From Candidatus Latescibacterota bacterium (GTDB taxonomy: Bacteria; Krumholzibacteriota; Krumholzibacteriia; WVZY01; JAKEHA01), in the NCBI GenBank assembly GCA_963707635.1, contig OY970173.1, forward strand, positions 2,801,489 through 2,865,488: 64,000 nucleotides of DNA, read 5' to 3'. The position numbers and the translations under genes were made by a program. Under the pieces are notes generated by a model. That model did no database searches, was not told the origin of the DNA, and was given only the letters and a program-made list of their open reading frames with translations. This document shows, one piece after another, positions 6-44,270 of this stretch (the stretch's first letter is position 1; each line of letters opens with the position of its first letter).

Positions 6-2897
6 ATGATCAACATCTCGACGCCCCTTGCGCGTACCCTCACGCACCTGCCGACGCTGGTGCTGCTCGTTGCCTTTCCTCAATTATCTGCCGGCCAGAC
101 CGCCCTCTCACCCACAAGAGACGTCACTCTCTTCGACCCGCAGTGTGAAAAAGCGAGCGGGTCCGGAGACTATTTGTTTGCGGGGAACACGAACGGACAG
201 GGCCGGCGTCGCGCGTTGTTGCACTTCGACATTGCCGGGAGTCTGCCGCCCGGCGCCGTGATCCAGAGTGTCACGCTGACCTTGCACATGTCGCAGACCA
301 ATACCGGGACGCGCACCTTCACTCTCCACCGACTGCAGCAGGACTGGGGGGAAGGAGCCTCCAATTCGGGGTCTCCCGGAGGGGGCGGCGGCCCGGCCCT
401 GAATAATGACGCGACCTGGTGCTACCGCTTCTACAACCAGGGTGATCCCGGCGCTTCTCCCGTGTGGTCGCCCTACGGCGGCGAGTTCGACACCACGGCG
501 AGCGCGTCGGCGGGCGTGGACGGAGTCGACTTCTACTCATGGACGTCGCCGCAGATGGTCGCCGACGTGCAGAGCTGGCTCGACAATCCTGCCTCCAACT
601 TCGGCTACATCCTGATCGGGCAGGAGGGCACCTTGCAGACCGCGAAGCGCTTCGACTCGCGCACGAACCCGACGATCAACCTGCGCCCCGTACTGCTGGT
701 TGAGTACGGCCCCCCGCCCGCGCCACCGGAGGTCGCGGTGCTGTCCCCCAACGGAGGCGGAACGGTCACGGCCAACACGGGGACCCTCGCCCAGTGGACG
801 GCAACCGACGCGAGCGGAATTGCCAGGATCGACCTGTACGTTTCGATCGACAACGGGCTCTCGTTCGACCGGGTTGCGATCGATCTTCCCCATACCGGAT
901 CGTACACATGGTTTCCCGCCAATCGCCCCACGACGCAGGCTCGGTTCCGTGTCGTCGCGACTGACAACACCAGTGTCAGCAATCAGGACGACAGCGATAT
1001 GCCGTTCACCATTCTCTCTCCGCCGGGCGGCATCGTGCCCACGACGCTGCGCGACTTCGATCAGCCCGGCACGCAGCCGTTCGACGCGGGCAAGCTCAAG
1101 GACCCCGAGAACTGTGCCACCTGCCACAGCGGCTACGGACAGACCGCGGTGGAGCCCTACTACAACTGGCAGGGCAGCATGATGGCCAATGCATCGCTCG
1201 ATCCCCTGTTCGAGGCAGCGCTGGCGATCGCGAACCAGGACGCACCGGATTCCGGCGATCTCTGCCTGCGATGTCACAACAGCCGCGGCTGGCTGGGCGG
1301 CCGCTCGATTCCGACCAGTGGGACGCAGATGGCCGACCAGGACAAGATTGGCGTTTCGTGCAACCTTTGTCATCGCATGGTCGACCCGATCGCCAACGCG
1401 GAGAATCCGGCCGAGGATGCCGCCGTCCTCGCCGCGCTCGATGAAGTTCCCGCCGAGTTCGGCACCGGCATGTACGTCGTCGACCCGAATGAGTCGGCTC
1501 GCCGCGGTCCTTTTGCCGATGCGGCCAGTGGTCACCCGATACTGGTTTCGCCGTTCCACCGCGAAGCGGCGCTGTGCGGAACGTGCCACAACGTCAGCAA
1601 CCCGGCGTTCACTCGCGATGCGGGCGGCAATTACGTGCCCAACGCGTTCGATACGCCCGCGCCCAGCTTCTCGCCGGACTCCATCATGGCGGTCGAGCGC
1701 ACGTACAGCGAGTGGTTGTTCAGCGCGTACAACACCCCGGGCGGCGTGTACGCGCCCGAGTTCGGAGGCAACAAGACCTACGTCTCGACCTGTCAGGATT
1801 GCCACATGCGGGATGTCACCGGCAAAGGCTGCAACAACGTCGCCGCGCCGGTCCGGTCGGACCTGCCGCTGCACGACCTGACGGGTGGAAGCACCTGGAT
1901 ACCCGGACTCCTGAGCACACTGCACCCGACGGTGGCCAACGACGCCGCGCTCCAGGACGGAATCATTCGGGCGCGCTACATGCTCCAGAACGCGACCGAG
2001 TTGTCACTCGTATCGGCCGACTCACTGCTCAGAGTGCGCGTGACAAACCAGACGGGGCACAAGCTGCCAACCGGCTATCCGGAAGGCCGCCGCGTCTGGC
2101 TCAACGTGAAGTTCTACGACCAGTCCATGGCCCTCGTCGGCGAGTCCGGGGCGTACGACGCAAGTACCGGGGTACTCACGCATGATGCCGAAGCCAAGAT
2201 CTACGAGATCGAGCCCGCCACGAATGGTATTCCCGGAGTTCCGGACGGCTCCCGGTTTCATTTCGTCCTGAACAACACCGTGCTCAAGGATAATCGCATC
2301 CCGCCGCGCGGTTTCACGAATGCTGCTTACGCTGCGTTTGGAGGCCCGCCGGTCGGACACGCCTATGCCGACAGCCAGTACTGGGACGACACGGAGTACG
2401 TCATCCCGACCGGCGCGGTGAAGGCCGAAGTGACGCTGTACTACCAGAGCACCTCGAAGGAGTACGTGGAGTTCCTGCGTGACCAGAACACCACGAACAC
2501 CAGGGGACAGGAGATGTTTGACGTATGGAACAACAACGGCAAGTGCCCTCCCGAAGTAATGAACACCCTGTCGGTGGACTTCAACTTGACCGCGGTTGAT
2601 GACAGCCCGGCGCCCGTGACGCGTCTGGGTCAGAATTACCCGAATCCGTTTAACCCGAGCACGTCGATCCAGTATTCCATCGGCGAACGAGGACACGTCA
2701 CGTTGCGGGTGTACGACGTGGCTGGACGGCTGGTGCGCACACTCGTGGACGCGGACCGCGCGCCCGAGGCCGGCTGGCTGAGCGTTACCTGGGACGGCAG
2801 GAACGATACCGGCGAGCCGGTGTCCAGCGGATTGTACTTCTACCGCCTGACGGTAAACGGCCACCGGGAAACCAGAAAGATGGTGCTTCTGCGATAG
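6..2897 (+). CDS. Secreted pentaheme c-type cytochrome with T9SS-type C-terminal sorting domain
   Basis: 963-aa ORF with N-terminal signal peptide (MINISTPLARTLTHLPTLVLLVAFPQLSAGQ). Five CxxCH motifs: CATCH, CLRCH, CNLCH, CGTCH, CQDCH. C-terminus LGQNYPNPFNPSTSIQY...VYDVAGRLVRTL...WDGRNDTGEPVSSGLYFYRL...RKMVLLR matches the Por-secretion-tail / FlgD-Ig-like sorting-domain pattern. Confidence 0.8.
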   Translation: MINISTPLARTLTHLPTLVLLVAFPQLSAGQTALSPTRDVTLFDPQCEKASGSGDYLFAGNTNGQGRRRALLHFDIAGSLPPGAVIQSVTLTLHMSQTNTGTRTFTLHRLQQDWGEGASNSGSPGGGGGPALNNDATWCYRFYNQGDPGASPVWSPYGGEFDTTASASAGVDGVDFYSWTSPQMVADVQSWLDNPASNFGYILIGQEGTLQTAKRFDSRTNPTINLRPVLLVEYGPPPAPPEVAVLSPNGGGTVTANTGTLAQWTATDASGIARIDLYVSIDNGLSFDRVAIDLPHTGSYTWFPANRPTTQARFRVVATDNTSVSNQDDSDMPFTILSPPGGIVPTTLRDFDQPGTQPFDAGKLKDPENCATCHSGYGQTAVEPYYNWQGSMMANASLDPLFEAALAIANQDAPDSGDLCLRCHNSRGWLGGRSIPTSGTQMADQDKIGVSCNLCHRMVDPIANAENPAEDAAVLAALDEVPAEFGTGMYVVDPNESARRGPFADAASGHPILVSPFHREAALCGTCHNVSNPAFTRDAGGNYVPNAFDTPAPSFSPDSIMAVERTYSEWLFSAYNTPGGVYAPEFGGNKTYVSTCQDCHMRDVTGKGCNNVAAPVRSDLPLHDLTGGSTWIPGLLSTLHPTVANDAALQDGIIRARYMLQNATELSLVSADSLLRVRVTNQTGHKLPTGYPEGRRVWLNVKFYDQSMALVGESGAYDASTGVLTHDAEAKIYEIEPATNGIPGVPDGSRFHFVLNNTVLKDNRIPPRGFTNAAYAAFGGPPVGHAYADSQYWDDTEYVIPTGAVKAEVTLYYQSTSKEYVEFLRDQNTTNTRGQEMFDVWNNNGKCPPEVMNTLSVDFNLTAVDDSPAPVTRLGQNYPNPFNPSTSIQYSIGERGHVTLRVYDVAGRLVRTLVDADRAPEAGWLSVTWDGRNDTGEPVSSGLYFYRLTVNGHRETRKMVLLR

Positions 2898-3174: not shown

Positions 3175-3965
3175 GTGACCCACACTCGTTCGATTGCCGC
3201 CGCCCAGACGATACCGGTCCGCGGTGACGTGGACACGAACATCGAGCGTCACATCCGACTGGTTCATGCCGCAGCGGAGGAGCGCGCGCGAGTTCTCGTC
3301 TTTCCTGAATTGTCGCTGACGGGCTATGAGCTCGATCTCGCCGGCGAGTTGGCCTTTTCGGAGAACGATCCACGCCTGGCCCCTCTCGTCGAGGCGGCGG
3401 CGTCCTGTGCCATGACCCTCGTCGTCGGAGCGCCGGTGAGGATTGATACGCGGCTCTACATCGGGGCGTTCATCGTGTCTCCGGACCGCGCTCTCGACCT
3501 CTATACGAAGCAGCGCCTGGGGGCGTTCTCGGACAGCGCGAAAGTCGACGGCATCGTGCCGCCTGCCGAAGCGACCTTTTTCTTCCCGGTGACCGGAACC
3601 CACTCGTCCAGGTCGATGGTCATACCGCGGCGGTCGCGGTGTGCGCCGATACCGGCCGCCCGTCCCATCCGCAGGCGGCGGCGGATCGCGGTGCCAGGAC
3701 CTACCTGGCGAGCATGTTCGTAATTCCGTCCGAGTTCGAAAGAGAGGCCGCCAACCTTGGCGCCTACGCCGCGCGGCACACGATGGCTGTCGTCTTCGCG
3801 AACTACGGCGGTCCATCGGGTGGACTCGCTTCCGGCGGACGAAGCGCCATCTGGTCCGAAAAGGGCGCACGGTTGGTTCAACTCGAGGCAAGCGGCGCCG
3901 GCGTCGCGGTCGCCACCGAAACTCCGGCGGGTTGGCGTGCCCGCACGATCACCATCGCACGATGA
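3175..3965 (+). CDS. Carbon-nitrogen hydrolase (nitrilase superfamily), apparent -1 frameshift near 3583
   Basis: ORF 3175..3723 (GTG start) carries the CN-hydrolase N-terminal pattern (RVLVFPELSLTGYEL...). The C-terminal half continues in another frame (ORF 3639..3965: ...AVAVCADTGRPSHP...AVVFANYGG...). The two frames join in the run cttttttcttcccggtgac around 3575-3590. Confidence 0.6.
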
Positions 3966-9763: not shown

Positions 9764-12295
9764 CTACCTCACGAGCGTCATCTTCCTCGCGTCGCTGAAT
9801 TCGCCAGCGATCAACCGATAGAAATACACGCCCGAGCCTACCGTCGTTCCGCGATCGTTGCGACCGTCCCATTCGAGCGAGTATGACCCGCCTGGCCTCG
9901 ATTCGTTCACCAGCGTGCGTACGGGCGTACCGCTCACGTCATAAACCACCAGCTCCACGTGCTCGCGTGACGCGATTCGATACCGGATGGTCGTCGACGG
10001 ATTGAATGGGTTGGGATAGTTCGGCATGAGCTCGTACCGGGGAGGCACCGGTTCCGGGTCCGCCACGCTGTTCGTTATCTCGAACACATCGTCGAGCATT
10101 GCGCTGGCACCGCCCGGGTTGTAGACCACTACATCATAGAATCCATTGATCGCGCCCGTTGTGTTGAACGTCGCGCGAATCCGGTCCTTCCCCAGCCACG
10201 TGACCGATGTCGCCGCGAACGTTGCGTTGCCGCGCACCAACTCGACAGTGCCCGTCCTGGCAAACCCCGCGCCGTCGATTGTCAGAAGAACAGTCGGCAC
10301 GGAGGTGTTGACGGGAGTCACCGTCGCCGGTGCCGGCGGTGGCCAACCGCCCCGCATCGCAGCATTGATGGGATCGCCGCTGCCACTGGTGATGCGAATG
10401 CTCACGTGACTCGGCCCGCCATGTCCATTGCTGGAGGGAGTGCTGGTACCGCTAAACACGGTGCGGTTAGCCTCTCCCGGGTACGGATCTCCTTCATCAC
10501 CGAGATTTTCGGCTCGCTCCAGGTTGAACAACCCGTCGGCCTGCTCGACCGCGACCCGGCGCGGGATGTTATTGCTCGCACCCCCCGTCTGGTTCCCGCT
10601 GTCAATGTGCCAGATCACAAGGCCGCCTCCACCCAGCACGTTGACATCCGTGCCGACCGGCTGACGGTTCTCCACCAGGAAGTACTCGATGGGGTTCGTC
10701 ATGTCCTCCGCCCATCCATCCTCACGCGTTTCGAAATTCGTGGAATGCGCGACCCCTCCGCCGACCACCGAAATATCATCCAACACGAACGCTCCGCACG
10801 TAGTGGCATTGACGCCGTCTTCGTCCGACCAATTCGCGTCCGACACAAACATGAACTTGATCGTGTAGGGCGTGCCGGCGATCAGGAAAGGCGTGATGTC
10901 CACCACTTCGGTGCCGGAGCCGGTTCCGTGGTAAGTCGCGAACGTGAAGGTCACGCCTCCCGTGATGACCTGGGCGAGCGTGTAGTCAAAGCTCGGTTCC
11001 GTTTCATGGGTATACTTGTACGAGAGCGTGACGGTACCGTTGGTGTAGCCGAATTCCTGTGCCAGCGAATGCTTCCACCGGTTTCCGTAGCCAGCGCCAG
11101 AAATCCAGTTGCGCCGTGCCGCTTCGGAGGAGGTCAGCCCGCATCGCATCGAATATTTTCCGCTAATCGCGCAGGTTGCGCTACGGCGCCAGCGTTCGTA
11201 CATGACGTCGAGACGATAGACGTCACGGTTGGTCTCCACGTTGAAGATCGAGAACGGCGTGGGGACCGACGGGACTACGGTGACGTCCACCCACCCGAGC
11301 TGTGACTTTGACCAGGCGCCCATGTGCGACGGGCTGCTGGCCGTGTACTCGCCTCCGTAACCCATCAGGCACCAGACCCCGACGCCTGCCGACCCGCCAT
11401 CCGTATCGTACAGATCGGGGAGGCCGAAGGCGTGTCCGTACTCGTGGCAAGACACACCGATATTCTCGGTGTTCACTCCGCCGCAGGTGAAGGCCGGCTG
11501 GATCACGTAGTCGTCTACGATGATGCTGCCACCGCCGGTGCGCGGATCGTTGGTCACGTGACCCCCGCCGAGACTCGAATGATGAGACCAGATGCCCCCG
11601 GGCTGGCCGGTGCACTCCCCGCCCGGTTTCGCGTGCACGATGGAAACAAAGTCCACGTAGCCGTCGTCGTCACCCGAGTTGGGAATCCCGTCGGGACCGT
11701 CGTTGTCATACTGGCCGAAGTCGATCGCGGCATCATTCGCAGCGACGGTCGTGATGACCAGCTCGTGGACATTCGCAGCCCCACACCGCCCGTTGCATGT
11801 GCCCGGACCGGCGTAGTACGCGTCCGATTCGGGCAGCGTCGTCCAGCCGTAGACGGTGCCGGTGACGTTGAGATCGCCGTATGAAATCTCGCTGTAATAC
11901 TCCGTCAGCGTGCGTGGTGAAAAGGGCCCGTCATATAGTTTCGTCTGCACGATCGACACCGGATACGGATCCGCGCCGGTGTTGCTGAACTTCACGCAGA
12001 ACGTCGGCACAGCAATCGTGCCTGTGACAGCAAAGCGAGGACGTTCCGCCGCCTGGAGCAGATCACGTTTGTAGAATCCGTGATCCCGGATGAAGCGCTC
12101 GCGGTTATCACGGATGATGCGCGTCTTTTCGATCCATGCGTGCTCGAACTCGAACTGGCCGTTGTTGTCCTTGAGCGACTGACTCACAGAGGGGGAAACC
12201 TCCGAGCCCGGTTCGGGCCGGGAGACTTGCGCGCGGGACGTTGTAATGGCACCGACACCAAGAACCAACGCCAGAATGAGCGGTGCTCGTTGCAT
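9764..12295 (-). CDS. Secreted M6-family (immune-inhibitor-A-like) zinc metalloprotease with T9SS-type C-terminal sorting domain
   Basis: Signal peptide at internal ATG (MQRAPLILALVLGVGAITTSRAQ); zinc motif HEYGHAFGLPDLYD; C-terminus ...MPNYPNPFNPSTTIRYRI...VYDVSGTPVRTL...WDGRNDRGTTVGSGVYFYRL...RKMTLVR. Confidence 0.8.
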   Translation of the reverse strand: MQRAPLILALVLGVGAITTSRAQVSRPEPGSEVSPSVSQSLKDNNGQFEFEHAWIEKTRIIRDNRERFIRDHGFYKRDLLQAAERPRFAVTGTIAVPTFCVKFSNTGADPYPVSIVQTKLYDGPFSPRTLTEYYSEISYGDLNVTGTVYGWTTLPESDAYYAGPGTCNGRCGAANVHELVITTVAANDAAIDFGQYDNDGPDGIPNSGDDDGYVDFVSIVHAKPGGECTGQPGGIWSHHSSLGGGHVTNDPRTGGGSIIVDDYVIQPAFTCGGVNTENIGVSCHEYGHAFGLPDLYDTDGGSAGVGVWCLMGYGGEYTASSPSHMGAWSKSQLGWVDVTVVPSVPTPFSIFNVETNRDVYRLDVMYERWRRSATCAISGKYSMRCGLTSSEAARRNWISGAGYGNRWKHSLAQEFGYTNGTVTLSYKYTHETEPSFDYTLAQVITGGVTFTFATYHGTGSGTEVVDITPFLIAGTPYTIKFMFVSDANWSDEDGVNATTCGAFVLDDISVVGGGVAHSTNFETREDGWAEDMTNPIEYFLVENRQPVGTDVNVLGGGGLVIWHIDSGNQTGGASNNIPRRVAVEQADGLFNLERAENLGDEGDPYPGEANRTVFSGTSTPSSNGHGGPSHVSIRITSGSGDPINAAMRGGWPPPAPATVTPVNTSVPTVLLTIDGAGFARTGTVELVRGNATFAATSVTWLGKDRIRATFNTTGAINGFYDVVVYNPGGASAMLDDVFEITNSVADPEPVPPRYELMPNYPNPFNPSTTIRYRIASREHVELVVYDVSGTPVRTLVNESRPGGSYSLEWDGRNDRGTTVGSGVYFYRLIAGEFSDARKMTLVR

Positions 12296-12317
12296 GGATG
12301 CTCGGATCACCTGCTGC

Positions 12318-12905
12318 TCACTCGTCGCCTTCGTCTCCAAAGTGGGTCGCACGCGGCACTTTTCCCACCAGATCGGCGAACCGATAGGTCTGTGTGAGCC
12401 GTGCGAACTCTGGAGCACCGCGTACCTCGACGTAAAGATGTGCGGCGGGAATCCACGCGTTCTTGGCTCGATACCAACCTTCTCTGCTGGCAGTCGCATT
12501 GACAAGAACGCATTCGAGCGTCGCGGCCACAACGAGCTCCGCAGGCCATCCAAGTTTCTTCGGGTCGAACCCGGTCAAGTCGATGTGGACACGGACCGTA
12601 TCCCCAAAAAGGGCTTGTCCCTGGAAATGATAGGGATCCACCCACGTCTTGATCCCCGCGATGTTGGCTGCATTGCGATTCTCCGGTTTCCCAGCATCGT
12701 TCACGACGAAGCTTTCGTTGCAGGTGTAGTCCACAAGGCGTCCCCACGAGGCAATGTCATCGTATACAACGTACGTCACACGGCTGAGAACGATCCCGTC
12801 CTCAACGACGATGGGCTGCGCAATCTCGATGGCACGTTCCTCGGAGGCAGACACGGTGCTGGCGATAGCCAGAAGGATCCAAGCGACGAGGGGTCGGGCT
12901 AACAT
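12318..12905 (-). CDS. Secreted hypothetical protein
   Basis: Start at internal ATG giving signal peptide MLARPLVAWILLAIASTVSASEE; no recognisable domain. The upstream part of the track ORF is a translation of the adjacent ssrA-derived repeat. Confidence 0.5.
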   Translation of the reverse strand: MLARPLVAWILLAIASTVSASEERAIEIAQPIVVEDGIVLSRVTYVVYDDIASWGRLVDYTCNESFVVNDAGKPENRNAANIAGIKTWVDPYHFQGQALFGDTVRVHIDLTGFDPKKLGWPAELVVAATLECVLVNATASREGWYRAKNAWIPAAHLYVEVRGAPEFARLTQTYRFADLVGKVPRATHFGDEGDE

Positions 12906-25914: not shown

Positions 25915-28836
25915 GTGACGCGCTTGCCAACTCCGCGCGATTTCATCCTGCACCGCAGTTTCTTCGCCATGCTCGTACTGGCGGTCCCGCTCTTCCCGGC
26001 GCTGCTCTCCGCGGCAGAGAACGCGACCTCGACGGCCGTTCCTGCTCCGGCCGCGCCCGTGCGCCATGCGCCGTCGATTGATCGCAACGCCATCCAGGCC
26101 GCCGTTCAGGAATTCCAGTCTTCCCAGTCACCCCGCTGGACGGTGTCGTGGGACCCGGTGAGCGGTCTCCCTCGAATGCTGACTGGCCAGACCACGCGCT
26201 CCTACGGGGCCACATCGGAAGCCGCCGCGCTGGCATTCGCTGGCGAGCATCGGATGCTTCTGGGCTTGATCGATGAGAAACACTCGGTGCGCCTGGTTGG
26301 AACGAAACTCATGCGCACCCAATGGCGCGTAACGCTGCAACAACAATTCGCCGGGATCGACGTCCTCGATGGGACGATTCAGGTGGTCGTGGACGGGAAA
26401 GGCCGCGTCCTATATGTGACAAACTCGGCGTGGCCGGTTTCCGCCGTCGATTTCTCGATCGATGTCGGTGAGAGCGCCGTACGCTCCTCGATCGCCCGGC
26501 GGTTCAGTGGCGAAGACGTCACCTACAATGACGGACCCCGCCGCGTGATCTACCCATCCGGGAATGGGCGGCTCGCGTATGTGGCGTACGTGCTCGCCGG
26601 CCCGCAGGGGCCGTGGCGCGTCCTCGTCGATGCGCGGACGGGCGGCATCCTGGAAGCGCGGCGGTTGGTGGTCGAGGAGAAGCAGGCCCCATCGCAGGAT
26701 GCCGCGACGCAGCAGAATCCGTCGCGCCCCGCGGACGTCGCCGACGTCAATGATCCGTGTGCCCGCGAGTGGAACGAGATGGGGGGAGCCGCGGTGATCG
26801 AGGTCCCGGATCCTGCAGACCCGTACTATGTCGACGTAAAGGTTGGCGTGCCCGGTCTCGGCGAGTTTCAACCGCAGGGGATCGGGACGTCCGCTGCGGG
26901 GATCAAACTCTTTCCGTGCATTTATTACACAATCCAGGTCGACTACAACGTGCACACCTGGGGTGGCTGGAATACTCCCAACGGCTTCCGTGATGTCTTC
27001 TTCGTCAACGTCAACAACATGAACTGGTACTGGAATCTCGGGCTCATTCCGCAGGCGCAGCTGTTCTGTACGACCGCCTACAACGACATGGGACTGATTC
27101 TCCCCGGCAAGGCCTGGGTCGCCGGCGGGAATCGATGCGGCGACGGCCTCTTGTGCGATCTGGTGGGATCGTTCCAGTTCGACATCATCGAACCGAACAA
27201 CACCAAAGAGCTCTATCTCTCGGTTGGGATGCAGCGGGTCTCAGTTTCGTGTCCGTCATGGGGGACCATCCGGGTCAAGATCATCGCGAAGTCCCGTGTC
27301 TTCGACCCCAACCCGGTGACCACGCTGAACCAGCCCTTCACGGACCAGGATGACGCCAACGAAGCCGTTCCCTGCGACGCGTACATCGGCGTCGACCTTC
27401 CGAATCTTACCCCGCCGCCGCCCGGGCAACCCTGGACTCTCACGGGCGACTATTGCGAGATCGTGGACATCACGGCCCCTGCCAAAACGTACACCTCGGC
27501 GCGCGACCCGAATTTCCCCTATCTGCGCCGGTGCGACATGTTCGAAGCGGTGAATGCCTACTACCACATCACGACCAACCAGCTCTACATCCAGTCTCTC
27601 GGTTTTACCGGCCTTTCCGGCATCAACAACCGCGCGCATCGCGTGGACCCGCATGGGATGGATCACGTGGACAACTCGCAATACGTCGGTAATCCCCCGG
27701 GACTTGGCTACATCGAGTTCGGCGAGGCCTTTGTCGACGACGCCGAAGACGCCGACGTGATCCTCCACGAGTACGGCCACTCGATTCAGGACAACCAGAC
27801 ATTCGGCTATTACCTCGGGACTGGCGCAGGCAACGGCTTCGGCAACGAGACGTGGGCGATGGGCGAGGGGTTCGCCGACTACTGGGCGTGCAGCAACTTT
27901 GCCGACGAGAGTACCGCGAGCGGCTTCGACCCCGCCGCGTACGGCGAGTGGAACAAACAGAACATGACCGGGACCCGCAGGGTCGACAAGAACAAGATCT
28001 ATCCGACGAATATGGAAAGCGAAGAACACGCCGACGGAGAGATCTGGTCGCGCACGCTGTGGGACCTCTTTCAGGCAGTCGGGAAGACGACCTCTGACGT
28101 GCTCATACTGGAGAGTCACTATCTCGTTCCTTCACGTCCATTGTTCAGCGACGGCGCCAAGGCGTTGATTGCAGCGGACGCAGTTGCCAACGCGGGCGCC
28201 AACAAGAATACGATTGTCGCCATCTACGTCGATCGCGGCATCTTCCGTAGTCTCGCCGTTGCATCGTCGCCCATCAACGGCGTGCCGATCACCGTGTCGA
28301 GGCAGGACGTACGTGGCGATCAAAGTGATGCCACCGACTTCAACCGGACGTATGCGTGGGGGGACTCGGTATCGCTCGACGCACCGCCCTCGTTTGGCGA
28401 CCGTACTTTCACGCGCTGGGATGTGGACGGCGTCGCGGGTGCGAACGGCGACTTGACCGCCGTCGTGCGCATGGACGAATCGCCACCATTTCACTCGGCC
28501 ATCGCTTACTACGATACTCTCCCTGGCGACCCCGGCACGCCCGTCCGTGACATCCCGAAAGCCCTGGCGCTGCTTCAGAATCACCCGAACCCGTTCAACC
28601 CGACGACGACGATCACGTTCACGTTGCCGAGGGAGATGGAGATCGAGCTTTCGGTGTTCGACGTGGCGGGCCGGCGGGTGGCCACACTCCGGAGCGGACG
28701 CGAACGGGCAGGCGTCTATGCCGTGGTGTGGGATGGACGGAGCGCGGCCGGTGAGACGGTGAGCTCGGGCGTGTACATCTACCGGTTGCGAGCGGGCCAA
28801 ACGGTTCTGACGAGGAAGATGACACTACTCAAGTAG
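25915..28836 (+). CDS. Secreted zinc metalloprotease, fungalysin/thermolysin-like (M36/M4-like), with T9SS-type C-terminal sorting domain
   Basis: HExxH site VILHEYGHSIQ with a downstream Glu motif GEGFADYWA, resembling fungalysin HEYTHG...EGWSD. C-terminus LLQNHPNPFNPTTTITF...VFDVAGRRVATL...WDGRSAAGETVSSGVYIYRL...RKMTLLK. GTG start at 25915 (ATG alternative 25969). Confidence 0.65.
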   Translation: MTRLPTPRDFILHRSFFAMLVLAVPLFPALLSAAENATSTAVPAPAAPVRHAPSIDRNAIQAAVQEFQSSQSPRWTVSWDPVSGLPRMLTGQTTRSYGATSEAAALAFAGEHRMLLGLIDEKHSVRLVGTKLMRTQWRVTLQQQFAGIDVLDGTIQVVVDGKGRVLYVTNSAWPVSAVDFSIDVGESAVRSSIARRFSGEDVTYNDGPRRVIYPSGNGRLAYVAYVLAGPQGPWRVLVDARTGGILEARRLVVEEKQAPSQDAATQQNPSRPADVADVNDPCAREWNEMGGAAVIEVPDPADPYYVDVKVGVPGLGEFQPQGIGTSAAGIKLFPCIYYTIQVDYNVHTWGGWNTPNGFRDVFFVNVNNMNWYWNLGLIPQAQLFCTTAYNDMGLILPGKAWVAGGNRCGDGLLCDLVGSFQFDIIEPNNTKELYLSVGMQRVSVSCPSWGTIRVKIIAKSRVFDPNPVTTLNQPFTDQDDANEAVPCDAYIGVDLPNLTPPPPGQPWTLTGDYCEIVDITAPAKTYTSARDPNFPYLRRCDMFEAVNAYYHITTNQLYIQSLGFTGLSGINNRAHRVDPHGMDHVDNSQYVGNPPGLGYIEFGEAFVDDAEDADVILHEYGHSIQDNQTFGYYLGTGAGNGFGNETWAMGEGFADYWACSNFADESTASGFDPAAYGEWNKQNMTGTRRVDKNKIYPTNMESEEHADGEIWSRTLWDLFQAVGKTTSDVLILESHYLVPSRPLFSDGAKALIAADAVANAGANKNTIVAIYVDRGIFRSLAVASSPINGVPITVSRQDVRGDQSDATDFNRTYAWGDSVSLDAPPSFGDRTFTRWDVDGVAGANGDLTAVVRMDESPPFHSAIAYYDTLPGDPGTPVRDIPKALALLQNHPNPFNPTTTITFTLPREMEIELSVFDVAGRRVATLRSGRERAGVYAVVWDGRSAAGETVSSGVYIYRLRAGQTVLTRKMTLLK

Positions 28837-30469: not shown

Positions 30470-32859
30470 CTACTTCAGCAATAGCATCTTACGTGCGAGC
30501 GTCGCTCCGCTCGCGTTGAGACGGTAAAAGTAGATCCCGCTTCCCACGCGCCGGCCTTCATTATCGACACCGTCCCATTCCGCGACATAGGTCCCGGCAC
30601 GGCGATGCGTGTCGAGTAGCGAACGGACGAGGGCGCCTCGCGCGTCGTAAATACGCAGCGAGACCGGGCCGTCGCGTTCCACGCCGTAAGAAATCCTGGT
30701 GGTGGGATTGAACGGATTGGGGACGTTCTGATCCAGGTGGGTGCGAGCCGGCGTTGTGCCGGCGCCCGTCACCGCGCCCGGCGTGAGCAGCCGCAAAGGC
30801 GCTCTCGTTGTCGTGCAAATCGAACGCGCTGACCTTGTAGTAGTAGCCGCTCGAGGGTGTCCACGCGGGATCGAGGAACGACTCCGACGCCGGCGTTGCG
30901 ATGCGATTACCCGCATCCGGGACAAAGCCCGCCGTGCTTCCCCGATACACGCCGTAATTCGCGAGATCGTGCTCGTCGTTTGGCTGCCACGACATCGAGA
31001 GTCCGGCAGGAGAATGTGATTGTGCACCCGCGAGATTCTGAGGCGCGGCCGGGGCAAGGTTATCGACCGAGTATCCGCTGTCTGGCGCGCTGTCGTAATA
31101 CACCGACGGCGTCGTGGTCTGCGCCATTACGAAGTACACGTTGTACGGAGTGACCGCAACCGTCTGGTCAGCCTGCGTAGGTGCGAGCACGATGTAGTCG
31201 CTCGACTGCTGCCGCGCGGGAGCGCTCGCGACCGATTCCCACAACGCTGCTGTGGACACCGCATCCAGCGAGGGCTCGCGCCAGATCCGGTGACCTTCCC
31301 ATTCGATAGCGCTCGACTTCCCTACCACGCCCTCGCTTTGGATCTGCGCAACGAGAGCTGCATTATCGATGCGCCGAAACACGTAGTACGTGAGCACACC
31401 CGGCGAAGCACTCGCGATGTCCTCTCCCGATCCCTGGAAGTAGACACGCACCCAGCCACCCTGATCTCCGGGCACATCGACGATGTTGTGAATCTCCGGC
31501 TTCTGGCGGCTGAATCGGGCGATGAAGATATCCTGGCCCGATGCTGTGAGATTGCTTCCCCCAAAATTGGTCGTACCGTTGACGTAGCCGGTCATGACGA
31601 CATTGTTCGCCGGGTCGGTGACGACCCGGTTGGCATGCTGATCAGACGCGTCACCGTACGTCGCGTTGAACAGAAGATTCCCGTCGTTGTCGAATCGAAC
31701 GAGAAAAATGTCGGTGCCACCGGCACTGGTGAGGGCTCCGGTTCCAAAATCCACGCTGCCCGCGTAGTAACCCGACCACGCCACCGCACCGCCGGCATCC
31801 ACCGCGGGCCCATTGGCGTTTTGCGCGCCGGCATCCCCGAAGCGTCTTGCTCCAGACATGATTGCCCGCGGCATCCAGCCTGGCGATGCAGATGTCGTTG
31901 CCACCTGCCGACGTCAGCCCGCCGCCGCCGAAATCCACCGTCCCCTGGAATGTTCCCGTGACGAAGACGTTACCCGCCGGATCGAATCCGATTCCATTTC
32001 CGATCTGGCTGCTGGCATCCCCGAAGCGCTTGCTCCACACGTGCACGCCCGCGCTCGTGAACCGCGCAACAAAGATGTCGTTGCTTCCTCCGCTGGTAAT
32101 GGTGCCACCACCGAAGTCGGCGCTGCCCGCCATGTTCCCCGCAATTCCAACGTCTCCGTCCGCACTAACTGCCACCCCGATCCCATTCTGGCCCCCAGTC
32201 GCTCCGAAGCGTTTGCTCCACAGATGATTTCCGGCGGGATCGAACTTCACCAGGAATATGTCGGCGCCGCCCCCGCTCGTGAGCGGCCCCCCACCGAAGT
32301 CCACGGTTCCATTCATCAATCCGGTCATGTAGATGTTGCCGCTGCCGTCGGTGGCGATGCCGTTTGGAATCTGGTCGGTCGCGTCGCCAAATTGCTTGCT
32401 CCACTGATGCGCGCCGGCGGAGTTGAATTTACCGACAAAAATGTCGGTCAAGCCGGCGGAACTGAGGGTCGAACCTCCCAGGTTCACGGATCCTGACACT
32501 TGCCCGGCCAGAACGACGTTGCCGGAAGGGTCACAGGCCAGTGCGGTGCCGTATTCGGACATTGTCGTGCTTTGGAAAAAGCCCACGCTGTAGAGATGGG
32601 TCCCGCCAGCGTTGAATTTGGCGAGATACGGTGCATCGTCCGTGCTTCCGACCGTGAAGTCCCCCCCGCCAAAATTGACCGTCCCCCGAAACATGCCCGT
32701 GATCCATACGTTGCCGCTCGGATCCACGGCAATTCCGCGGCCGTCCTGTGTGTTGACATCGCCAAAGATCTTGCTCCAGCTATGCTGGAGAGCCGGGGCA
32801 GCCTCGAGACGGACGGAATTGAGGAGAAGAAGCGAGAGGACGACGGGACGGATTCGCAT
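30470..32859 (-). pseudogene. Secreted beta-propeller (SBBP-like) repeat protein with fibronectin-III-like region and T9SS-type C-terminal domain; reading frame broken twice
   Basis: Three track ORFs (31651..32895, 30561..31904, 30470..31057) are consecutive parts of one protein: signal peptide MRIRPVVLSLLLLNSVRLEAAPA, ~8 repeats of the D-x-x-G-N-x-x-x-T-G...FGGG type, a YSVDNLAPAAP segment, and C-terminus ...NVPNPFNPTTRISY...IYDARGALVRSL...WDGVDNEGRRVGSGIYFYRL...RKMLLLK. Frame switches near 31845 and near 30790. Confidence 0.65.
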
Positions 32860-34255: not shown

Positions 34256-34354
34256 GCACCTCCCAAAAAACTCGTGACGGATCCTGCCCCGGCACGTCTA
34301 ACCGGGAAACGGGCTCCATGCCCGAAAGCCAGCCACCGAACCGGAGGGCCTCCC

Positions 34355-35359
34355 ATGTTTCGACGTCTCGTGCTCCTGACCGTGCTGACCCTGATTGCCG
34401 GCTTCCGCCCGGCACAGGCCGACATCACGACGGGCCTCATCGCCCGCTACCCGTTTGACGGCAACGCCAACGATATCAGTGGAAACAACAATCACGGCTC
34501 GTTGGTGGGTGCGGTGGCGTCCACCACCGATCGTTTCGGGTTGCCCGACCGGGCCTATGCGTTCAACGGCCTGAATACCTATGTGCTGGTCCCTGCCTCG
34601 GCCAGCCTGAACTCGCCGACCACGGCTTGCACGCAGGCGGGATGGACGCTGCAATCCGGAGTGAGTAGTGTGGGATCGGGCTTCAATCCGCTCCTCATGA
34701 AGAGCAATAGCGGTGAGAATGCGTTCATGTACCGGATGATCACGAACCCCACCTACGTGGGCGCCGCATTCAACAACTGGAACACCGCCCAGAGCGCCGG
34801 GCAGGCGACACCGCTCAACGAGTGGCACCACTTCGCGACCGTGTTCAACGGCGCTACCGTCAGGTACTACTACGACGGCGCGTACATCGGGTCGCAGCCG
34901 ATGGTGATGACGATCACCCCGGACAACCGCCCGCTCACCATTGGCGCCGATGTGCCCGGTATTCTCGAGATCTTCAACGGCAAGATCGACGATGTGTCCA
35001 TCTACAGTCGTGCACTCACCGACGAGGACATCGTCGAGCTCTACAATCAGGCGACGCCGACTGCCGTGTCCCAATCGACGCCGCCGTTTTCGCTGGGCTA
35101 CAGCGTTCCCAATCCCAGCGGCGGCGAAAGCAGCGTGGAGTTCACCCTCGACTCGGAGCAGTTCGTCCAGCTCGACGTGTTCGATGTGGCCGGGCGCCGC
35201 GTGCGCGTCATGGAATCCGGAGTTCGTTCGGCCGGAGTCCATCGCGCGACGTGGGATGGGCGCCGGGACAACGGGAGCCATACGCCGTCGGGCGTCTATT
35301 TCTTTCGTCTCCACAGTGGAAACCACGTGCTGACGAGCCGAATCGTTCGGGTGCGGTAG
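34355..35359 (+). CDS. Secreted LamG / concanavalin-A-like lectin domain protein with T9SS-type C-terminal sorting domain
   Basis: Signal peptide (MFRRLVLLTVLTLIAGFRPAQA); LamG-like block (DGNANDISGNNNHGSLVG...WHHFATVFNG...GKIDDVSIYSRALTDEDI); C-terminus ...VPNPSGGESSVEF...VFDVAGRRVRVM...WDGRRDNGSHTPSGVYFFRL...SRIVRVR. Confidence 0.7.
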   Translation: MFRRLVLLTVLTLIAGFRPAQADITTGLIARYPFDGNANDISGNNNHGSLVGAVASTTDRFGLPDRAYAFNGLNTYVLVPASASLNSPTTACTQAGWTLQSGVSSVGSGFNPLLMKSNSGENAFMYRMITNPTYVGAAFNNWNTAQSAGQATPLNEWHHFATVFNGATVRYYYDGAYIGSQPMVMTITPDNRPLTIGADVPGILEIFNGKIDDVSIYSRALTDEDIVELYNQATPTAVSQSTPPFSLGYSVPNPSGGESSVEFTLDSEQFVQLDVFDVAGRRVRVMESGVRSAGVHRATWDGRRDNGSHTPSGVYFFRLHSGNHVLTSRIVRVR

Positions 35360-37362: not shown

Positions 37363-38064
37363 ATGAAGAATCTCGACATCCACGCGCAGCCCGACGACAT
37401 GAGCTGCGGGGCCACCTGCCTGCACGCGATCTACCGCCACCACGGCGACCGGATCGCCCTGGACGACGTCGTACGCGACGTCGAGCGGCTCGAGGAGGGC
37501 GGGACCCTCGGCGTGTATCTCGGCACCCACGCGCTGCGCCGCGGCTACAAGGTGAGCCTCTACTCGTACAACCTCCAGGTCTTCGACCCGACCTGGCGCG
37601 CGCTCGGCCGCGACGAGCTGGTGGACCGGCTCGCGCGCCAGATGGCAGTCAAGCACCAGCGCAAACTCAAGATCGCGTCGCAGGCCTACATCGAGTTCAT
37701 GCGCCTGGGGGGAGAGATTCGCTTCGCGGAGCTTTCGCCCAAGCTGATCCGCCGCCACCTCACCGGCAACGTGCCCATGCTGGCCGGTTTGAGCTCCACG
37801 TATCTCTATCAGACCGCGCGCGAATACGGACCGCAGGGCGAGTACGACGACGTACGCGGTGTTCCCGGCGGGCATTTCGTGGTCCTGTTCGGCTACGACA
37901 ACGAGTCGCGCGACGTGCGCGTCGCCGACCCGTGGCAGCCCAATCCCGAGAAGGAGCGCTACTACGAGGTGGGAATCAACCGGCTCATCTGCGCGATCCT
38001 GCTCGGGGTACTCACCTACGACGCCAATCTGCTCGTCATATCGCCGAGCCGGAAGCGGGGCTGA
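37363..38064 (+). CDS. Papain-fold cysteine peptidase-like protein (C39-like / transglutaminase-like), first gene of the amidoligase operon
   Basis: Candidate catalytic Cys (DDMSCGATCL), His (GGHFVVLFGYD) and Asp (VRVADPW) in the order expected for a papain-fold peptidase; its stop lies 2 nt before the GTG start of the next gene. Confidence 0.5.
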   Translation: MKNLDIHAQPDDMSCGATCLHAIYRHHGDRIALDDVVRDVERLEEGGTLGVYLGTHALRRGYKVSLYSYNLQVFDPTWRALGRDELVDRLARQMAVKHQRKLKIASQAYIEFMRLGGEIRFAELSPKLIRRHLTGNVPMLAGLSSTYLYQTAREYGPQGEYDDVRGVPGGHFVVLFGYDNESRDVRVADPWQPNPEKERYYEVGINRLICAILLGVLTYDANLLVISPSRKRG

Positions 38065-38066
38065 CC

Positions 38067-39524
38067 GTGTCGCGCCTGTTCGTCGTCAATAATCCGAAGA
38101 ACTGGCCGCTCCACGTCCCTGGCGTGGAGGTGGTATCGGCGCGGAGCTACCTCACCGACTCGGCGTACAGCGAAATCGAGAACGCCAAGGTATTCAACCT
38201 GTGCCGGTCGTATCGATACATGAGCACCGGGTACTACGTCTCGCTCCTCGCCGAGGCCCGCGGCCATCGCGCCATCCCGAGCATCATGACGCTGCAGGAC
38301 ATGCGCCAGGACGCGATTTTCCGGATCCGCTCCGAGGACCTGGACGAGCTGATCCAGCGCGCCATGTCGCACCTCAAGGCGGAGCGCTACCAGTTGAGCA
38401 TCTACTTCGGCCGGCCGCTCGCGAAGCGCTATGAGCGCCTCGCGCAGCAGCTGTTCTCCTATTTTGAAGCGCCGCTACTGCGTGCGCACTTCGTCTATCG
38501 CAAGAAGTGGGAGCTGGACCAGATCGATCCGATCGCGGTCAAGGACATCCCCGACTGGCAGCGACCGTTCGTGGTCAACGCGGCCGGAGAGTACTTCCTC
38601 AAGCTCGAGCGCAGGCCGCGCCGGCACAAGACCTTCCGGTACGACCTCGCGATTCTCTACAACCCGGACGAGGCCGAGCCTCCCTCCGACCCGCGCTCGC
38701 TGCGGAAATTCTGCCGCGCCGCCGAACAGCTGGGCATGGATCCCGAGCTCATCACGCGCGACGACTACCGGCGTATCGCCGAGTTCGACGCGCTCTTCAT
38801 CCGCGAGACGACGGCGGTCAACCACCACACCTATCGGTTCGCGCGGCGCGCGGTCGCGGAGGGGCTGCCGGTCATCGACGACCCCGAATCGATTATTCGC
38901 TGCACCAACAAGGTCTACCTGGCGGAGATGTTCGACCGCTATCGCCTCGCCACGCCGAAGACGATGATCGTCCACCGCGAGAACGCGAGCCAGGTCGCGG
39001 AGACGCTGAATCTCCCCTGCATCGTGAAACAACCCGACAGCTCGTTCTCGCAGGGGGTGGTGAAGCTCAACACCCACAAGGAGCTCGACGACGAGATCGA
39101 GCGACGGCTGGAAAGCTCGGACCTCCTGATCGCGCAGGAGTTCATGCCGACCGACTTCGACTGGCGCATCGGCGTGCTGGAGGGCAAGGCGCTCTACGCC
39201 TGCCGGTATTTCATGGCGCACAAGCACTGGCAGATCCTGAAGCGCACCTCGCGCGGCCGGCTGCGGAGCGGGCGCGTGGAATCGATCGCGGTGCCGCGCG
39301 CGCCGCGCGACGTGATCCGGCTGGGCGTGGCCGCAGCCGGCGCGGTCGGCGACGGGCTCTACGGCGTCGACATCAAGCAGCGCGGCGACGAGTTCTACCT
39401 GATCGAGGTCAACGACAACCCGAGCATCGAGGCGGGCTACGAAGACAAGATCCTCGGCGACAAGCTCTATACCCGGATCATGAAGTCGCTCCTGCGACGG
39501 ATCGTCGAGCTAAAGGGAGCGTAA
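38067..39524 (+). CDS. RimK-like ATP-grasp ligase with N-terminal extension
   Basis: The C-terminal ~300 aa follow the RimK-type ATP-grasp pattern (LPVIDDPESIIRCTNKVYL..., PCIVKQPDSSFSQGV, DLLIAQEFMPTDFDWRIGVLEG, GVDIKQRGDEFYLIEVNDNPSIEAG); preceded by a ~180-aa N-terminal domain. GTG start at 38067. Confidence 0.7.
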   Translation: MSRLFVVNNPKNWPLHVPGVEVVSARSYLTDSAYSEIENAKVFNLCRSYRYMSTGYYVSLLAEARGHRAIPSIMTLQDMRQDAIFRIRSEDLDELIQRAMSHLKAERYQLSIYFGRPLAKRYERLAQQLFSYFEAPLLRAHFVYRKKWELDQIDPIAVKDIPDWQRPFVVNAAGEYFLKLERRPRRHKTFRYDLAILYNPDEAEPPSDPRSLRKFCRAAEQLGMDPELITRDDYRRIAEFDALFIRETTAVNHHTYRFARRAVAEGLPVIDDPESIIRCTNKVYLAEMFDRYRLATPKTMIVHRENASQVAETLNLPCIVKQPDSSFSQGVVKLNTHKELDDEIERRLESSDLLIAQEFMPTDFDWRIGVLEGKALYACRYFMAHKHWQILKRTSRGRLRSGRVESIAVPRAPRDVIRLGVAAAGAVGDGLYGVDIKQRGDEFYLIEVNDNPSIEAGYEDKILGDKLYTRIMKSLLRRIVELKGA

Positions 39525-39530
39525 CCGGGC

Positions 39531-40799
39531 GTGTCGCTGCGGCTTTTCGAGGGTTTTGGGGTCGAGCTGGAGTACATGCTCGTCCACGCGGACTCGCTCG
39601 ACGTCCTCCCCGCCACCGATCAGGTCATCCTCGCCGTCGCGGGAGACTTTATCGCCGAGGTCGAGCGCGGCGCGCTCGCCTGGTCGAACGAGCTGGTCAA
39701 CCACGTCATCGAGCTCAAGACCAACGGCCCCGCGCCGCAGCTTCGCGGGCTCGACGATGCCTTCGCGCGCGACGTGGTCGAAATCCTCGCGTTGCTTCGC
39801 CCGCTCGGCGGGCGCCTGATGCCGACCGCCACCCACCCGTGGATGGACCCCGCCCGCGAGACCACGCTCTGGTCGCACGAGGAATACAACGAGGTCTATG
39901 AGGCGTTCGATCGCATCTTCGGCGTGCGGGGGCACGGATGGGCGAACCTCCAGTGCGTGCATCTCAACATTCCCTTCTACGGGGACGCCGAGTTTGCGCG
40001 GCTCCACGCCGCCATGCGTCTGCTCCTTCCGATCATCCCGGCGATCGCGGCGAGCTCGCCCATCCTGGACGGACGCCTCACCGGCCTCATGGACAGCCGG
40101 ATGCATTTCTATCGCGAGAACACGAGGAAGATTCCCTCCATCACCGGCAAGGTGATTCCCGAGCCGGTGTACTCGAAGCGCGAATACGAGGAGACGATCC
40201 TGGGGCGCATGTACGCCGATATCGCGCCGCACGACCCGGAGGAGACTCTGCGCGACGAGTGGCTGAATGCACGCGGCGCCATCGCGCGTTTCGACCGGAG
40301 TGCCATCGAGATCCGCATCATCGACATCCAGGAGTGCCCCACCGCCGACTTCGCCGTCATGCACGCGATCACCTGCGTCCTGCGCGCGCTGGTCGAAGAG
40401 AAATGGCAGCCCGCCGAGCGCCAGCAACGGTTCGACACCGACGCGCTGAATGCCGTTCTACTCGACACCACCCGCCACGCGGAAGAGGCGGCGATTCGGG
40501 ATTCCGATTACCTCGCCGCGTTCGGCTTGCACGCAACCCCGGTGAAAGCCGGCGAGCTGTGGCAGCACCTGGTCGAAACCGTGGTGGCGCCCGATGCGGA
40601 CTTCGGCGATCCGTGGTCGTCGGCGATGCGTACCATTCTGGACGAAGGCACGCTCGCGCGGCGGATCGTGCGCGCGGTCGCCCGCGAGAAGCCGGGAGCG
40701 GCGGCCCGGGCCGGCCTCGAGCGTGACACGCTCCACCGAGTCTACGCCTCGCTGTGCGACTGCCTGAAGTGGAACCGGGGCTTCCATGCCACGCCGTGA
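39531..40799 (+). CDS. Glutamate-cysteine ligase family 2 (GCS2 / YbdK-like carboxylate-amine ligase)
   Basis: GCS2-like N-terminus FGVELEYMLV; ~420 aa; GTG start 7 nt after the upstream stop. Confidence 0.65.
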   Translation: MSLRLFEGFGVELEYMLVHADSLDVLPATDQVILAVAGDFIAEVERGALAWSNELVNHVIELKTNGPAPQLRGLDDAFARDVVEILALLRPLGGRLMPTATHPWMDPARETTLWSHEEYNEVYEAFDRIFGVRGHGWANLQCVHLNIPFYGDAEFARLHAAMRLLLPIIPAIAASSPILDGRLTGLMDSRMHFYRENTRKIPSITGKVIPEPVYSKREYEETILGRMYADIAPHDPEETLRDEWLNARGAIARFDRSAIEIRIIDIQECPTADFAVMHAITCVLRALVEEKWQPAERQQRFDTDALNAVLLDTTRHAEEAAIRDSDYLAAFGLHATPVKAGELWQHLVETVVAPDADFGDPWSSAMRTILDEGTLARRIVRAVAREKPGAAARAGLERDTLHRVYASLCDCLKWNRGFHATP

Positions 40800-44106: not shown

Positions 44107-44270
44107 CGCACGCTGGCCCTCGGGCCTGCGTGCGTGATAGACTTATATCCAACGCGAGAGCCTCCTACCGACGCTCCCGCCTGATCGTCGACATCCGAAC
44201 GTCGGCCGGGTGTAGTTATGTGTTCTTCGGCGGCCACCGACTCCGCCCCCGAATACGCAGGAGGCCGTCC

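Follow-up and report, generated by a model that had tools for sequence, protein, structure and literature searches.

The gene at positions 6..2897 (+ strand) of the 64-kb stretch of DNA analyzed here, called the window below, is a real and ordinary-looking gene, and its product, a secreted cytochrome with five hemes, ends in a tail of the type IX secretion system (T9SS). The complete open reading frame (ORF) encodes 963 amino acids from an ATG only 5 nt into the window, and the gene call on an independent contig gives the identical 963 residues with the same start. Although the architecture of this protein is well supported, its function is what we infer: at about even probability, we favor an extracellular electron relay, i.e., a T9SS-exported holo-cytochrome with a chain of six-coordinate hemes. 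What was seen directly is the ORF with its motifs and domains, the fold, the size of the family, and its tails and fusions; where the protein resides, how its hemes are ligated, which way electrons flow, and with which partners are treated below as predictions.

Domain architecture

Residues 1-30 (6..95, + strand) form a predicted Sec signal peptide (...AFPQLSAG/Q), in which n, h, and c regions of the typical kind could be read by eye and no lipobox cysteine was found. A preliminary description of this DNA had seen no motif in the N-terminal ~350 residues, which proved wrong. A DNRLRE domain, a CBM96-like beta-sandwich, occupies residues 51-232 (156..701, + strand; NF033679, 64.5 bits versus a cut-off of 34), and an Ig-like (Big_7/Fn3-like) domain occupies residues 241-337 (726..1016, + strand). 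The Big_7 match is slightly under its cut-off; the region is confidently modeled as a beta-sandwich and is kept together with the cytochrome core in most homologues. The Pfam CBM96 match (24.4 bits) is under its cut-off of 26, so alginate binding of the kind described in PMC9971899 should not be read from it. An alpha-helical pentaheme domain (residues 355-610; 1068..1835, + strand) follows, and then a beta-sandwich "stem" with a conserved C-terminal subdomain (residues 611-857; 1836..2576, + strand) and the T9SS type A C-terminal sorting domain (residues 878-963; 2637..2894, + strand).

Heme motifs and candidate axial ligands

Five CxxCH motifs start at residues 370, 420, 452, 524, and 596, all on the + strand: CATCH for heme 1 (residues 370-374; 1113..1127), CLRCH for heme 2 (420-424; 1263..1277), CNLCH for heme 3 (452-456; 1359..1373), CGTCH for heme 4 (524-528; 1575..1589), and CQDCH for heme 5 (596-600; 1791..1805). 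Found by motif scan, they are 98-100% conserved in 90 diverse homologues, with heme 1 at 100%, and no shuffled version of the protein, out of 20,000, had as many as five. Their placement by the preliminary description in the central part of a secreted 963-residue protein is thus borne out, at residues 370-600 and beyond shuffle expectation. CxxCK or longer-spaced variants of the heme motif do not occur in the 963-residue protein.

Conserved ligand candidates in the homologue alignment are His510, His623, His685, His752, and Met393, which, judged from conservation, could act as the sixth ligands of all five hemes; His518, 79% conserved, is an alternative candidate. Met393 (1182..1184, + strand), the predicted distal methionine ligand, lies in W388-x2-S391-x-M393 and aligns to the histidine of WKGSMHA in the cytochrome structure 5ZE8; this position is methionine in 98% of the 90 homologues and histidine in one. 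His685 is invariant and belongs to the motif GHKLPTGYPEGRR (residues 684-696; 2055..2093, + strand), in which Tyr691 takes the slot of selenocysteine Sec325 of MccSep, as indicated by alignment to 9wt8 and by conservation (Tyr in 84%, His in 8%, and Phe in 7% of homologues). Since four histidines and one methionine could complete five hemes, electron transfer is favored over catalysis, and the earlier view of this protein as a candidate for extracellular electron transfer is supported.

Relationship to known multiheme cytochromes

A structure model that included the Ig domain (pLDDT 76) gave Foldseek matches to Ig/Fn3 folds only, whereas a trimmed AF2 model from a more diverse alignment reached pLDDT >90 for residues 611-857 and gave a fold match to 5ZE8. 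A non-cytochrome fold around the CxxCH motifs had been raised as a reason for doubt; both fold and profile instead match 5ZE8, the pentaheme cytochrome c552 of Thermochromatium tepidum. This low-potential penta-heme cytochrome (LPC) is a soluble protein of 385-435 residues whose function is unknown (bioRxiv 10.1101/2023.11.21.568154). The two proteins are superimposable, each with a helical five-heme cap ahead of a beta-sandwich, the stem aligning with the Ig-like domain of 5ZE8, at only 16-22% identity. The window core is ~130 residues longer, owing to a longer spacer between hemes 4 and 5 (72 residues versus ~29) and a C-terminal helical subdomain; Met393 and Tyr691 stand where c552 has histidine and alanine, respectively, and the DNRLRE, Ig, and T9SS domains are additional to the c552 plan. 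PtdA of the ptdABCDEFG cluster, a c552 homologue with a penta-heme domain and a C-terminal beta-sandwich (bioRxiv 10.1101/2023.11.21.568154), has by description the same two-domain plan, but it lies beside a porin and partners with four and ten hemes, whereas the window family is without conserved neighbors.

ExtKL/MccSep of Geobacter sulfurreducens (NF040886, 9wt8) likewise combines five CxxCH motifs with a cap-plus-Ig-stem, a link made by HMM and motif alignment only. The NF040886 model was matched by 28 of 38 family members (best E 9e-12), at 28-40 bits for the family and 27.9 bits for the window protein (partial match, residues 587-706) against a cut-off of 250 bits. The G-H-x-x-P-x-G-[U/Y]-P loop aligns residue by residue between MccSep and the window protein, with Tyr691 replacing Sec325 and no Sec or Cys there; the heme-2 ligand C239 of MccSep is without a counterpart, as no cysteine occurs between residues 528 and 596. 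MccSep is a periplasmic, tetrameric polysulfide reductase found mainly in Desulfobacterota and Nitrospirota, and its C239H, U325A, and U325C variants are inactive (bioRxiv 10.1101/2025.11.18.688581). In contrast, the window protein's family occurs in PVC and FCB lineages and is predicted to be extracellular.

This resemblance makes a catalytic role conceivable, in which the protein would be an extracellular reductase or oxidase, either a Sec-independent MccSep relative or an NrfA/HAO-like enzyme, with Tyr691 and its loop forming a pocket and one heme acting as the active site. We consider this rather unlikely. Across 90 diverse cores, 57 positions are ≥95% conserved, and many of these lie beyond the heme-binding motifs; this would agree with such a role, as would the predominance of tyrosine in the Sec slot and marginal profile similarity to Escherichia coli NrfA (E 0.06-0.1) in the stretch separating the motifs of hemes 4 and 5. 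The ExtKL/MccSep homology also spans the heme 5-stem region, which builds the active site in MccSep (bioRxiv 10.1101/2025.11.18.688581). However, both residues essential for MccSep activity according to that preprint are missing, as is the CxxCK active-site heme of NrfA; the five conserved ligand candidates leave no heme obviously open, and phenylalanine replaces Tyr691 in some members.

MtrC and OmcA have ten hemes in two pentaheme domains, a lipoprotein anchor, type II secretion, and MtrAB as partner. Their likeness to the window protein is a functional analogy, in that all are surface multiheme proteins with heme and beta-sandwich domains. By this analogy, the protein might be the MtrC/OmcA-like outer terminal reductase of a cell-to-mineral conduit, taking over respiratory electrons from a trans-outer-membrane partner whose gene lies elsewhere and using them to reduce Fe(III), Mn(IV), sulfur, or humics. 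A surface sorting signal joined to a multiheme chain would suit such a role, as would sub-threshold Pfam/NCBIfam similarity to MtrC/MtrF domains II/IV and OmcA/MtrC and the wide occurrence of the family in metagenome-assembled genomes (MAGs) of Planctomycetota, Verrucomicrobiota, and FCB lineages. We nevertheless judge it unlikely: the decaheme models failed (PF22113, 22.8 bits versus a cut-off of 30; TIGR03507, 16.2 versus 209), the Mtr-type matches span only three CxxCH motifs, there are five hemes and not ten, and the fold neighbor is c552, neither structure search having MtrC or OmcA among its 50-60 fold matches listed. Moreover, a porin, periplasmic decaheme, or quinol dehydrogenase is neither conserved beside the gene in 80 loci nor present among the scanned window genes, and many host lineages of the family are fermentative polysaccharide degraders.

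Secreted redox modules with a carbohydrate-binding module are also known from fungal CDH and AA12 PDH and from Cellvibrio Cbp2D/E, which have single b- or c-type heme domains. The window protein differs from these in being a five-heme chain without its own dehydrogenase domain; the likeness lies in the pairing of redox module and CBM, and in the fusion of a PQQ/GSDH dehydrogenase to the module in some homologues. A link to LPMOs was not found.

C-terminal sorting domain and export

The tail matches TIGR04183 (T9SS type A sorting domain) over residues 878-960 with 36.5 bits against a curated cut-off of 23, and with 40.1 bits when taken alone; it also has weak similarity to the C-terminal domain of PorU (6za2). 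The HMM check proposed for the tail gave a divided result, above the cut-off for TIGR04183 and under it for Pfam Por_Secre_tail (23.3 bits versus 27). Pfam FlgD_ig was matched above its cut-off (33.2 bits versus 27), and CHU_C under its own. At least five other window ORFs have the same tail and pass TIGR04183, including an M6 protease (9764-12553), an M36 protease (25915-28836), and ORFs at 44130-46682 and 30470-31057; an ORF at 34274-35359 has a FlgD_ig tail. The suggestion that a T9SS-type tail is common to the cytochrome and the proteases is thereby upheld. These five or six putative cargo proteins are indirect evidence for a T9SS in the genome. Among named sequences, the M36 protease is closest to one from a Chitinivibrionia MAG (59%), and a search with FtsH carried no taxonomic information; the host probably belongs to the FCB group.

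If the C-terminal domain were just an Ig-like or FlgD-like fold with no part in secretion, the cytochrome would stay in the periplasm, as expected from soluble c552 and, according to the preprint, periplasmic MccSep. The sub-threshold Por_Secre_tail and CHU_C matches would fit this, and no T9SS core genes (SprA, PorV, PorU, GldK-N) were found among the scanned ORFs of the 64-kb window; heme-maturation genes were likewise absent among its scanned genes. Yet we regard a periplasmic location as very improbable: TIGR04183 is passed by 13 bits here and also by five other window ORFs, the tail-bearing M6 and M36 proteases are of the kind named T9SS-dependent by NCBIfam, CBM-like and Ig domains are typical of secreted proteins, and homologues in other phyla bear dockerin-like or PEP-CTERM tails instead, which are also extracytoplasmic anchors. 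We know of no other multiheme cytochrome that is T9SS cargo, so this one would be the first, with the implication that a protein already folded and loaded with heme passes through the T9SS.

Distribution of the family

At least 598 species genomes of Planctomycetota, Verrucomicrobiota, Eisenbacteria, Latescibacterota, Zixibacteria, and others encode the 618-residue core at 47-70% identity, with 60-70% in the closest Planctomycetota and Verrucomicrobiota. Other phyla have dockerin-like or PEP-CTERM tails in place of the T9SS tail, and the export tails of the family look lineage-specific. In some homologues the same module is fused to a PQQ sugar dehydrogenase (GSDH); such fusions are a small minority, and among the representatives listed, 5 of 150 have a long enough N-terminal sequence. 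A description of this family was not found in the literature on T9SS/Por secretion, dockerin-Planctomycetes, or Phycisphaerae multiheme cytochromes, in keeping with the earlier remark that the combination seems poorly characterized.

Proposed function and implications

In the electron relay that we favor, the protein would be exported by Sec, receive its five c-type hemes covalently in the periplasm, and cross the outer membrane through the T9SS by means of its type A sorting domain, probably coming to rest on or near the cell surface. The DNRLRE/CBM96-like and Ig domains may hold the cytochrome in position on a polymeric matrix. Its core is a module of the c552/ExtKL type, in which an Ig-like stem bears an alpha-helical cap with five hemes; four bis-His hemes and one His/Met heme would form a chain rather than a substrate-binding enzyme, and electrons might be relayed between secreted or surface oxidoreductases, such as PQQ-dependent sugar dehydrogenases, and external acceptors. 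The core identity across phyla speaks against a relay, as it exceeds what would be expected of simple electron carriers and could point to an enzyme with a defined substrate; because no porin-cytochrome partner is conserved, there is also no obvious electron route from the cell.

Extracellular multiheme cytochromes have mostly been studied in Geobacter and Shewanella. The present family is a distinct five-heme module in phyla known more for degrading polymers than for respiring metals. To judge from its tails, it leaves the cell by at least three sorting systems that are unrelated to one another, and it places both the orphan c552 structure and the MccSep enzymes, a family described only recently, in context. 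If the relay is real, many uncultured Planctomycetota, Verrucomicrobiota, Eisenbacteria, Latescibacterota, and Zixibacteria would move electrons outside the cell unrecognized, with a bearing on carbon, iron, sulfur, and humic cycling in sediments. A more speculative proposal, which we hold to be improbable, is a self-contained extracellular five-heme wire of PVC and FCB polysaccharide degraders, anchored according to lineage and carrying electrons from secreted PQQ-type or other dehydrogenases on polymers to external acceptors. Such a wire would give fermenters an electron sink or an oxidative attack on polysaccharides with no need for a conduit through the outer membrane; it would be to bacteria, in multiheme form, what the cytochrome domain of CDH/PDH is to fungi.

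Gene neighborhood and database records

All-against-all clustering of ~700 flanking ORFs from 80 loci found no conserved neighbor beyond the gene itself. Database representatives that start exactly at Met601 suggested selenocysteine recoding or split ORFs, which we rejected as truncated gene calls: in-frame TGA was found in none of 80 genomic loci, and two TAA stops lie at unrelated positions. Other genes near the cytochrome in the window, namely a frameshifted CN hydrolase, membrane proteins, and an ATP-grasp enzyme, are unrelated to it.

Domain architecture of the pentaheme protein

The ORF at 6..2897 (+) has an ATG start and encodes a protein of 963 aa, with exactly five CxxCH motifs (aa 370, 420, 452, 524 and 596) and no CxxCK. 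Shuffling the protein sequence 20,000 times never gave as many CxxCH motifs, and the preliminary description was thus right to claim a pentaheme protein. The T9SS-type sorting tail that it had proposed was also recovered, at aa 878-960, by the T9SS type A sorting domain model TIGR04183 (36.5 bits; curated cut-off, 23), and this domain and a predicted signal peptide are the evidence for localisation. The N-terminal ~350 aa, in which no motif had been recognised, actually contain a DNRLRE domain (residues 51-232, 64.5 bits; cut-off, 34), which is related to Pfam CBM96 but sub-threshold for that model, followed by an Ig/Fn3-like sandwich (residues 241-337).

Fold and predicted heme ligation

For aa 340-857, a second model drawn from a more diverse alignment had a pLDDT of 95.4 and a pTM of 0.93. 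Its sole significant Foldseek match (E 8e-16), which repeats the earlier Foldseek outcome, was 5ZE8, the structure of the penta-heme cytochrome c552 from Thermochromatium tepidum, and the family profile also retrieves 5ZE8 by sequence (E 5.6e-8). Cytochrome c552 consists of a five-heme helical domain upon an Ig-like domain and is without an assigned function (bioRxiv 10.1101/2023.11.21.568154). Compared with c552, the only relative with a solved structure, the window protein differs in location, size and accessory domains, as well as by a His-to-Met ligand change: Met393, in the context W388-x-x-S391-x-M393, corresponds to a His of c552, in WKGSMHA.

Candidate axial ligands outside the CxxCH motifs are His623 and His685 (both 100% conserved), Met393 (98%, the one exception being His), His752 (94%) and His510 (92%); His518 is only 79% conserved. 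At the level of sequence, five candidate ligands for five hemes suggest that four hemes are bis-His and one is His/Met, which would leave no coordination site open. Such predicted ligation points to electron transfer, not to substrate chemistry at the iron, and predicts one higher-potential heme that is absent from c552. The main alternative, that the protein is an enzyme with a defined substrate, would account for the very high conservation, and we consider it unlikely. The reading with the most support, to which we give an even chance, makes the protein a five-heme electron-transfer protein of the c552/ExtKL fold that is exported by the T9SS and associated with the surface, non-catalytic at its hemes and acting as a relay. 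In that role it would carry electrons between external acceptors and oxidoreductases that are extracellular or at the surface, and the DNRLRE and Ig domains would supply its positioning.

Relation to MccSep

The NCBIfam model NF040886 (ExtKL/MccSep) matched aa 587-706 of the window protein (E 8.6e-7) and, from a diverse set of 38 family members, 28 (E 9e-12 at best), with all scores far under the 250-bit cut-off. MccSep, described in late 2025, is a tetrameric polysulfide reductase of the periplasm that combines a five-heme cap with an Ig-like stem. Cys239 is the ligand of its heme 2, and the active site is completed by Sec325 of the stem; activity was lost in the variants C239H, U325A and U325C (bioRxiv 10.1101/2025.11.18.688581). 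The stem loops align residue for residue (GHSIPDGUPTPNR in MccSep, GHKLPTGYPEGRR in the window protein), and therefore Tyr691 lies in the Sec slot, a position that is Tyr in 84%, His in 8% and Phe in 7% of 90 diverse cores. In the window protein, the stretch separating the heme 4 motif from the heme 5 motif has no Cys, and no in-frame TGA was found in 80 family loci. Judged by sequence, the protein is a distant homologue of MccSep, and it is not a member of the MccSep family because three defining features of MccSep do not hold for it.

Family size and distribution

A search of ~5.8 billion proteins returned 795 matches at E <= 1e-5, the best 120 of which share 60-70% identity over residues 240-857, that is, the Ig, heme and C-terminal domains. 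Representatives clustered at 50% identity were searched exhaustively and gave 706 clusters at E <= 1e-30, and a scan of species-representative genomes confirmed the family in at least 598 genomes; the gene belongs to a large natural family and is thus not rare. The 80 loci listed, all from MAGs and 47-70% identical to the window protein, are labelled Planctomycetota (mostly Phycisphaerae), Verrucomicrobiota including Pontiella, Eisenbacteria, Latescibacterota, Krumholzibacteriia, Zixibacteria, Fibrobacteraceae, Ignavibacteria, Bacteroidota and Gemmatimonadota. Homologues are annotated at source as "hypothetical protein" or with generic cytochrome names, and full-text literature searching and follow-up reading found no published description of the pentaheme family.

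Three MAGs labelled Bifidobacteriaceae, Bifidobacterium and Hyphomicrobiales (loci L021, L027 and L050) carry the gene with Verrucomicrobiota-type or T9SS-like tails; these labels look unreliable, or the contigs mis-binned. In-frame TAA codons break the otherwise intact homologues L002 (query aa 327) and L042 (query aa 761); recoding was rejected, and these stops are probably sequencing errors or pseudogenes.

Export tails and localisation

TIGR04183 was matched by 33 of 48 homologue tails (37 from FCB-type or unclassified genomes, including the window protein, and 11 Verrucomicrobiota-type) and not by the other 15; the 48 tails together matched 13 families, among which the T9SS-related models were the only ones for sorting domains. 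Planctomycete homologues end in dockerin-like repeats or PEP-CTERM-like anchors, and verrucomicrobial ones in a common ...G-x-R-F-Y-R-[VI] motif without a model match. The full ending, ...T-S-G-x(3-6)-G-x-R-F-Y-R-[VIF]-x(2-5), is shared by the Verrucomicrobiota-type loci L018, L021, L022, L024, L025, L027, L030, L033 and L045, and perhaps serves as a C-terminal signal, specific to the PVC group, for sorting or anchoring.

Homologues that share the DNRLRE-Ig-core architecture end in a T9SS tail (P0002 and P0003), a PEP-CTERM tail (P0004) or a dockerin-like tail (P0005). A conserved core with interchangeable extracytoplasmic anchors provides strong comparative evidence that the pentaheme module works outside the cell, and a periplasmic location, being at odds with the export tails, is very improbable. 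The window core is 63-70% identical to Planctomycetota versions versus 47-57% to other T9SS-tailed versions, and the identity of its tail to other T9SS-type tails reaches 53%, which suggests that the core moved horizontally and the tail was replaced locally.

Fusions and genomic neighbourhood

Of 38 architecturally diverse members, five (P0089, P0130, P0179, P0181 and P0203) bear a GSDH/PQQ-dependent sugar dehydrogenase domain at the N-terminus (E down to 4e-38), its beta-propeller lying upstream of the pentaheme core with PKD, DUF11 or malectin between. Such fusions suggest that an extracellular dehydrogenase can use the pentaheme module as its redox partner, in a setting associated with carbohydrates. 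Other members carry CBM96/DNRLRE, malectin, MopE-type motifs, PKD or Fn3, and one non-GSDH member has a lysyl oxidase domain. Most Planctomycetota homologues (P0007-P0120, N-terminal ~150 aa) have a sixth CxxCH ~230 residues upstream of the pentaheme block, in a conserved module RNNIRDAFF...HCGVCH...GGGxRNPYG...DxDGDGFS, which the DNRLRE domain replaces in the window protein.

Across 80 loci, the family has no conserved neighbouring gene, and the genes of the window that were scanned included none for T9SS, porin-cytochromes or heme maturation. For the alternative of an Mtr-like terminal reductase that receives its electrons from the cell, there is no conserved conduit partner, and we regard it as improbable. 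The window neighbours, namely a frameshifted CN hydrolase, membrane proteins and an ATP-grasp enzyme, are unrelated to the cytochrome gene.

Other features of the window

The sorting tail had been said to recur in other proteins of the window, and indeed five further ORFs pass TIGR04183, including an M6 metalloprotease (9764-12553, -), an M36 metalloprotease (25915-28836, +), a short ORF (30470-31057, -) and a beta-propeller repeat protein (44130-46682, +); a sixth, a Laminin_G_3 lectin-like secreted protein (34274-35359, +), has a related FlgD_ig tail. At least five further T9SS-tailed secreted proteins within 64 kb represent an unusually dense cargo set.

The CN hydrolase gene (3175-3965, +) comprises two overlapping ORFs in different frames, 3175-3723 and 3639-3965, which match positions 2-113 and 149-250 of Pfam CN_hydrolase, respectively; this frameshift indicates either a pseudogene or an assembly error. 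On another contig, the automatic gene call places a 246-aa gene on the opposite strand in this region instead. An ORF of 388 aa at 53762-54928 (-) looks secreted, has one CxxCH (aa 176) and matches no Pfam model; it might encode a monoheme cytochrome of unassigned family. Three successive genes at 37932-41511 (+), encoding a RimK-like ATP-grasp protein with an RLAN domain, a GCS2 glutamate-cysteine ligase family 2 protein and an N-formylglutamate amidohydrolase, form a small peptide or amide-bond metabolism cluster.
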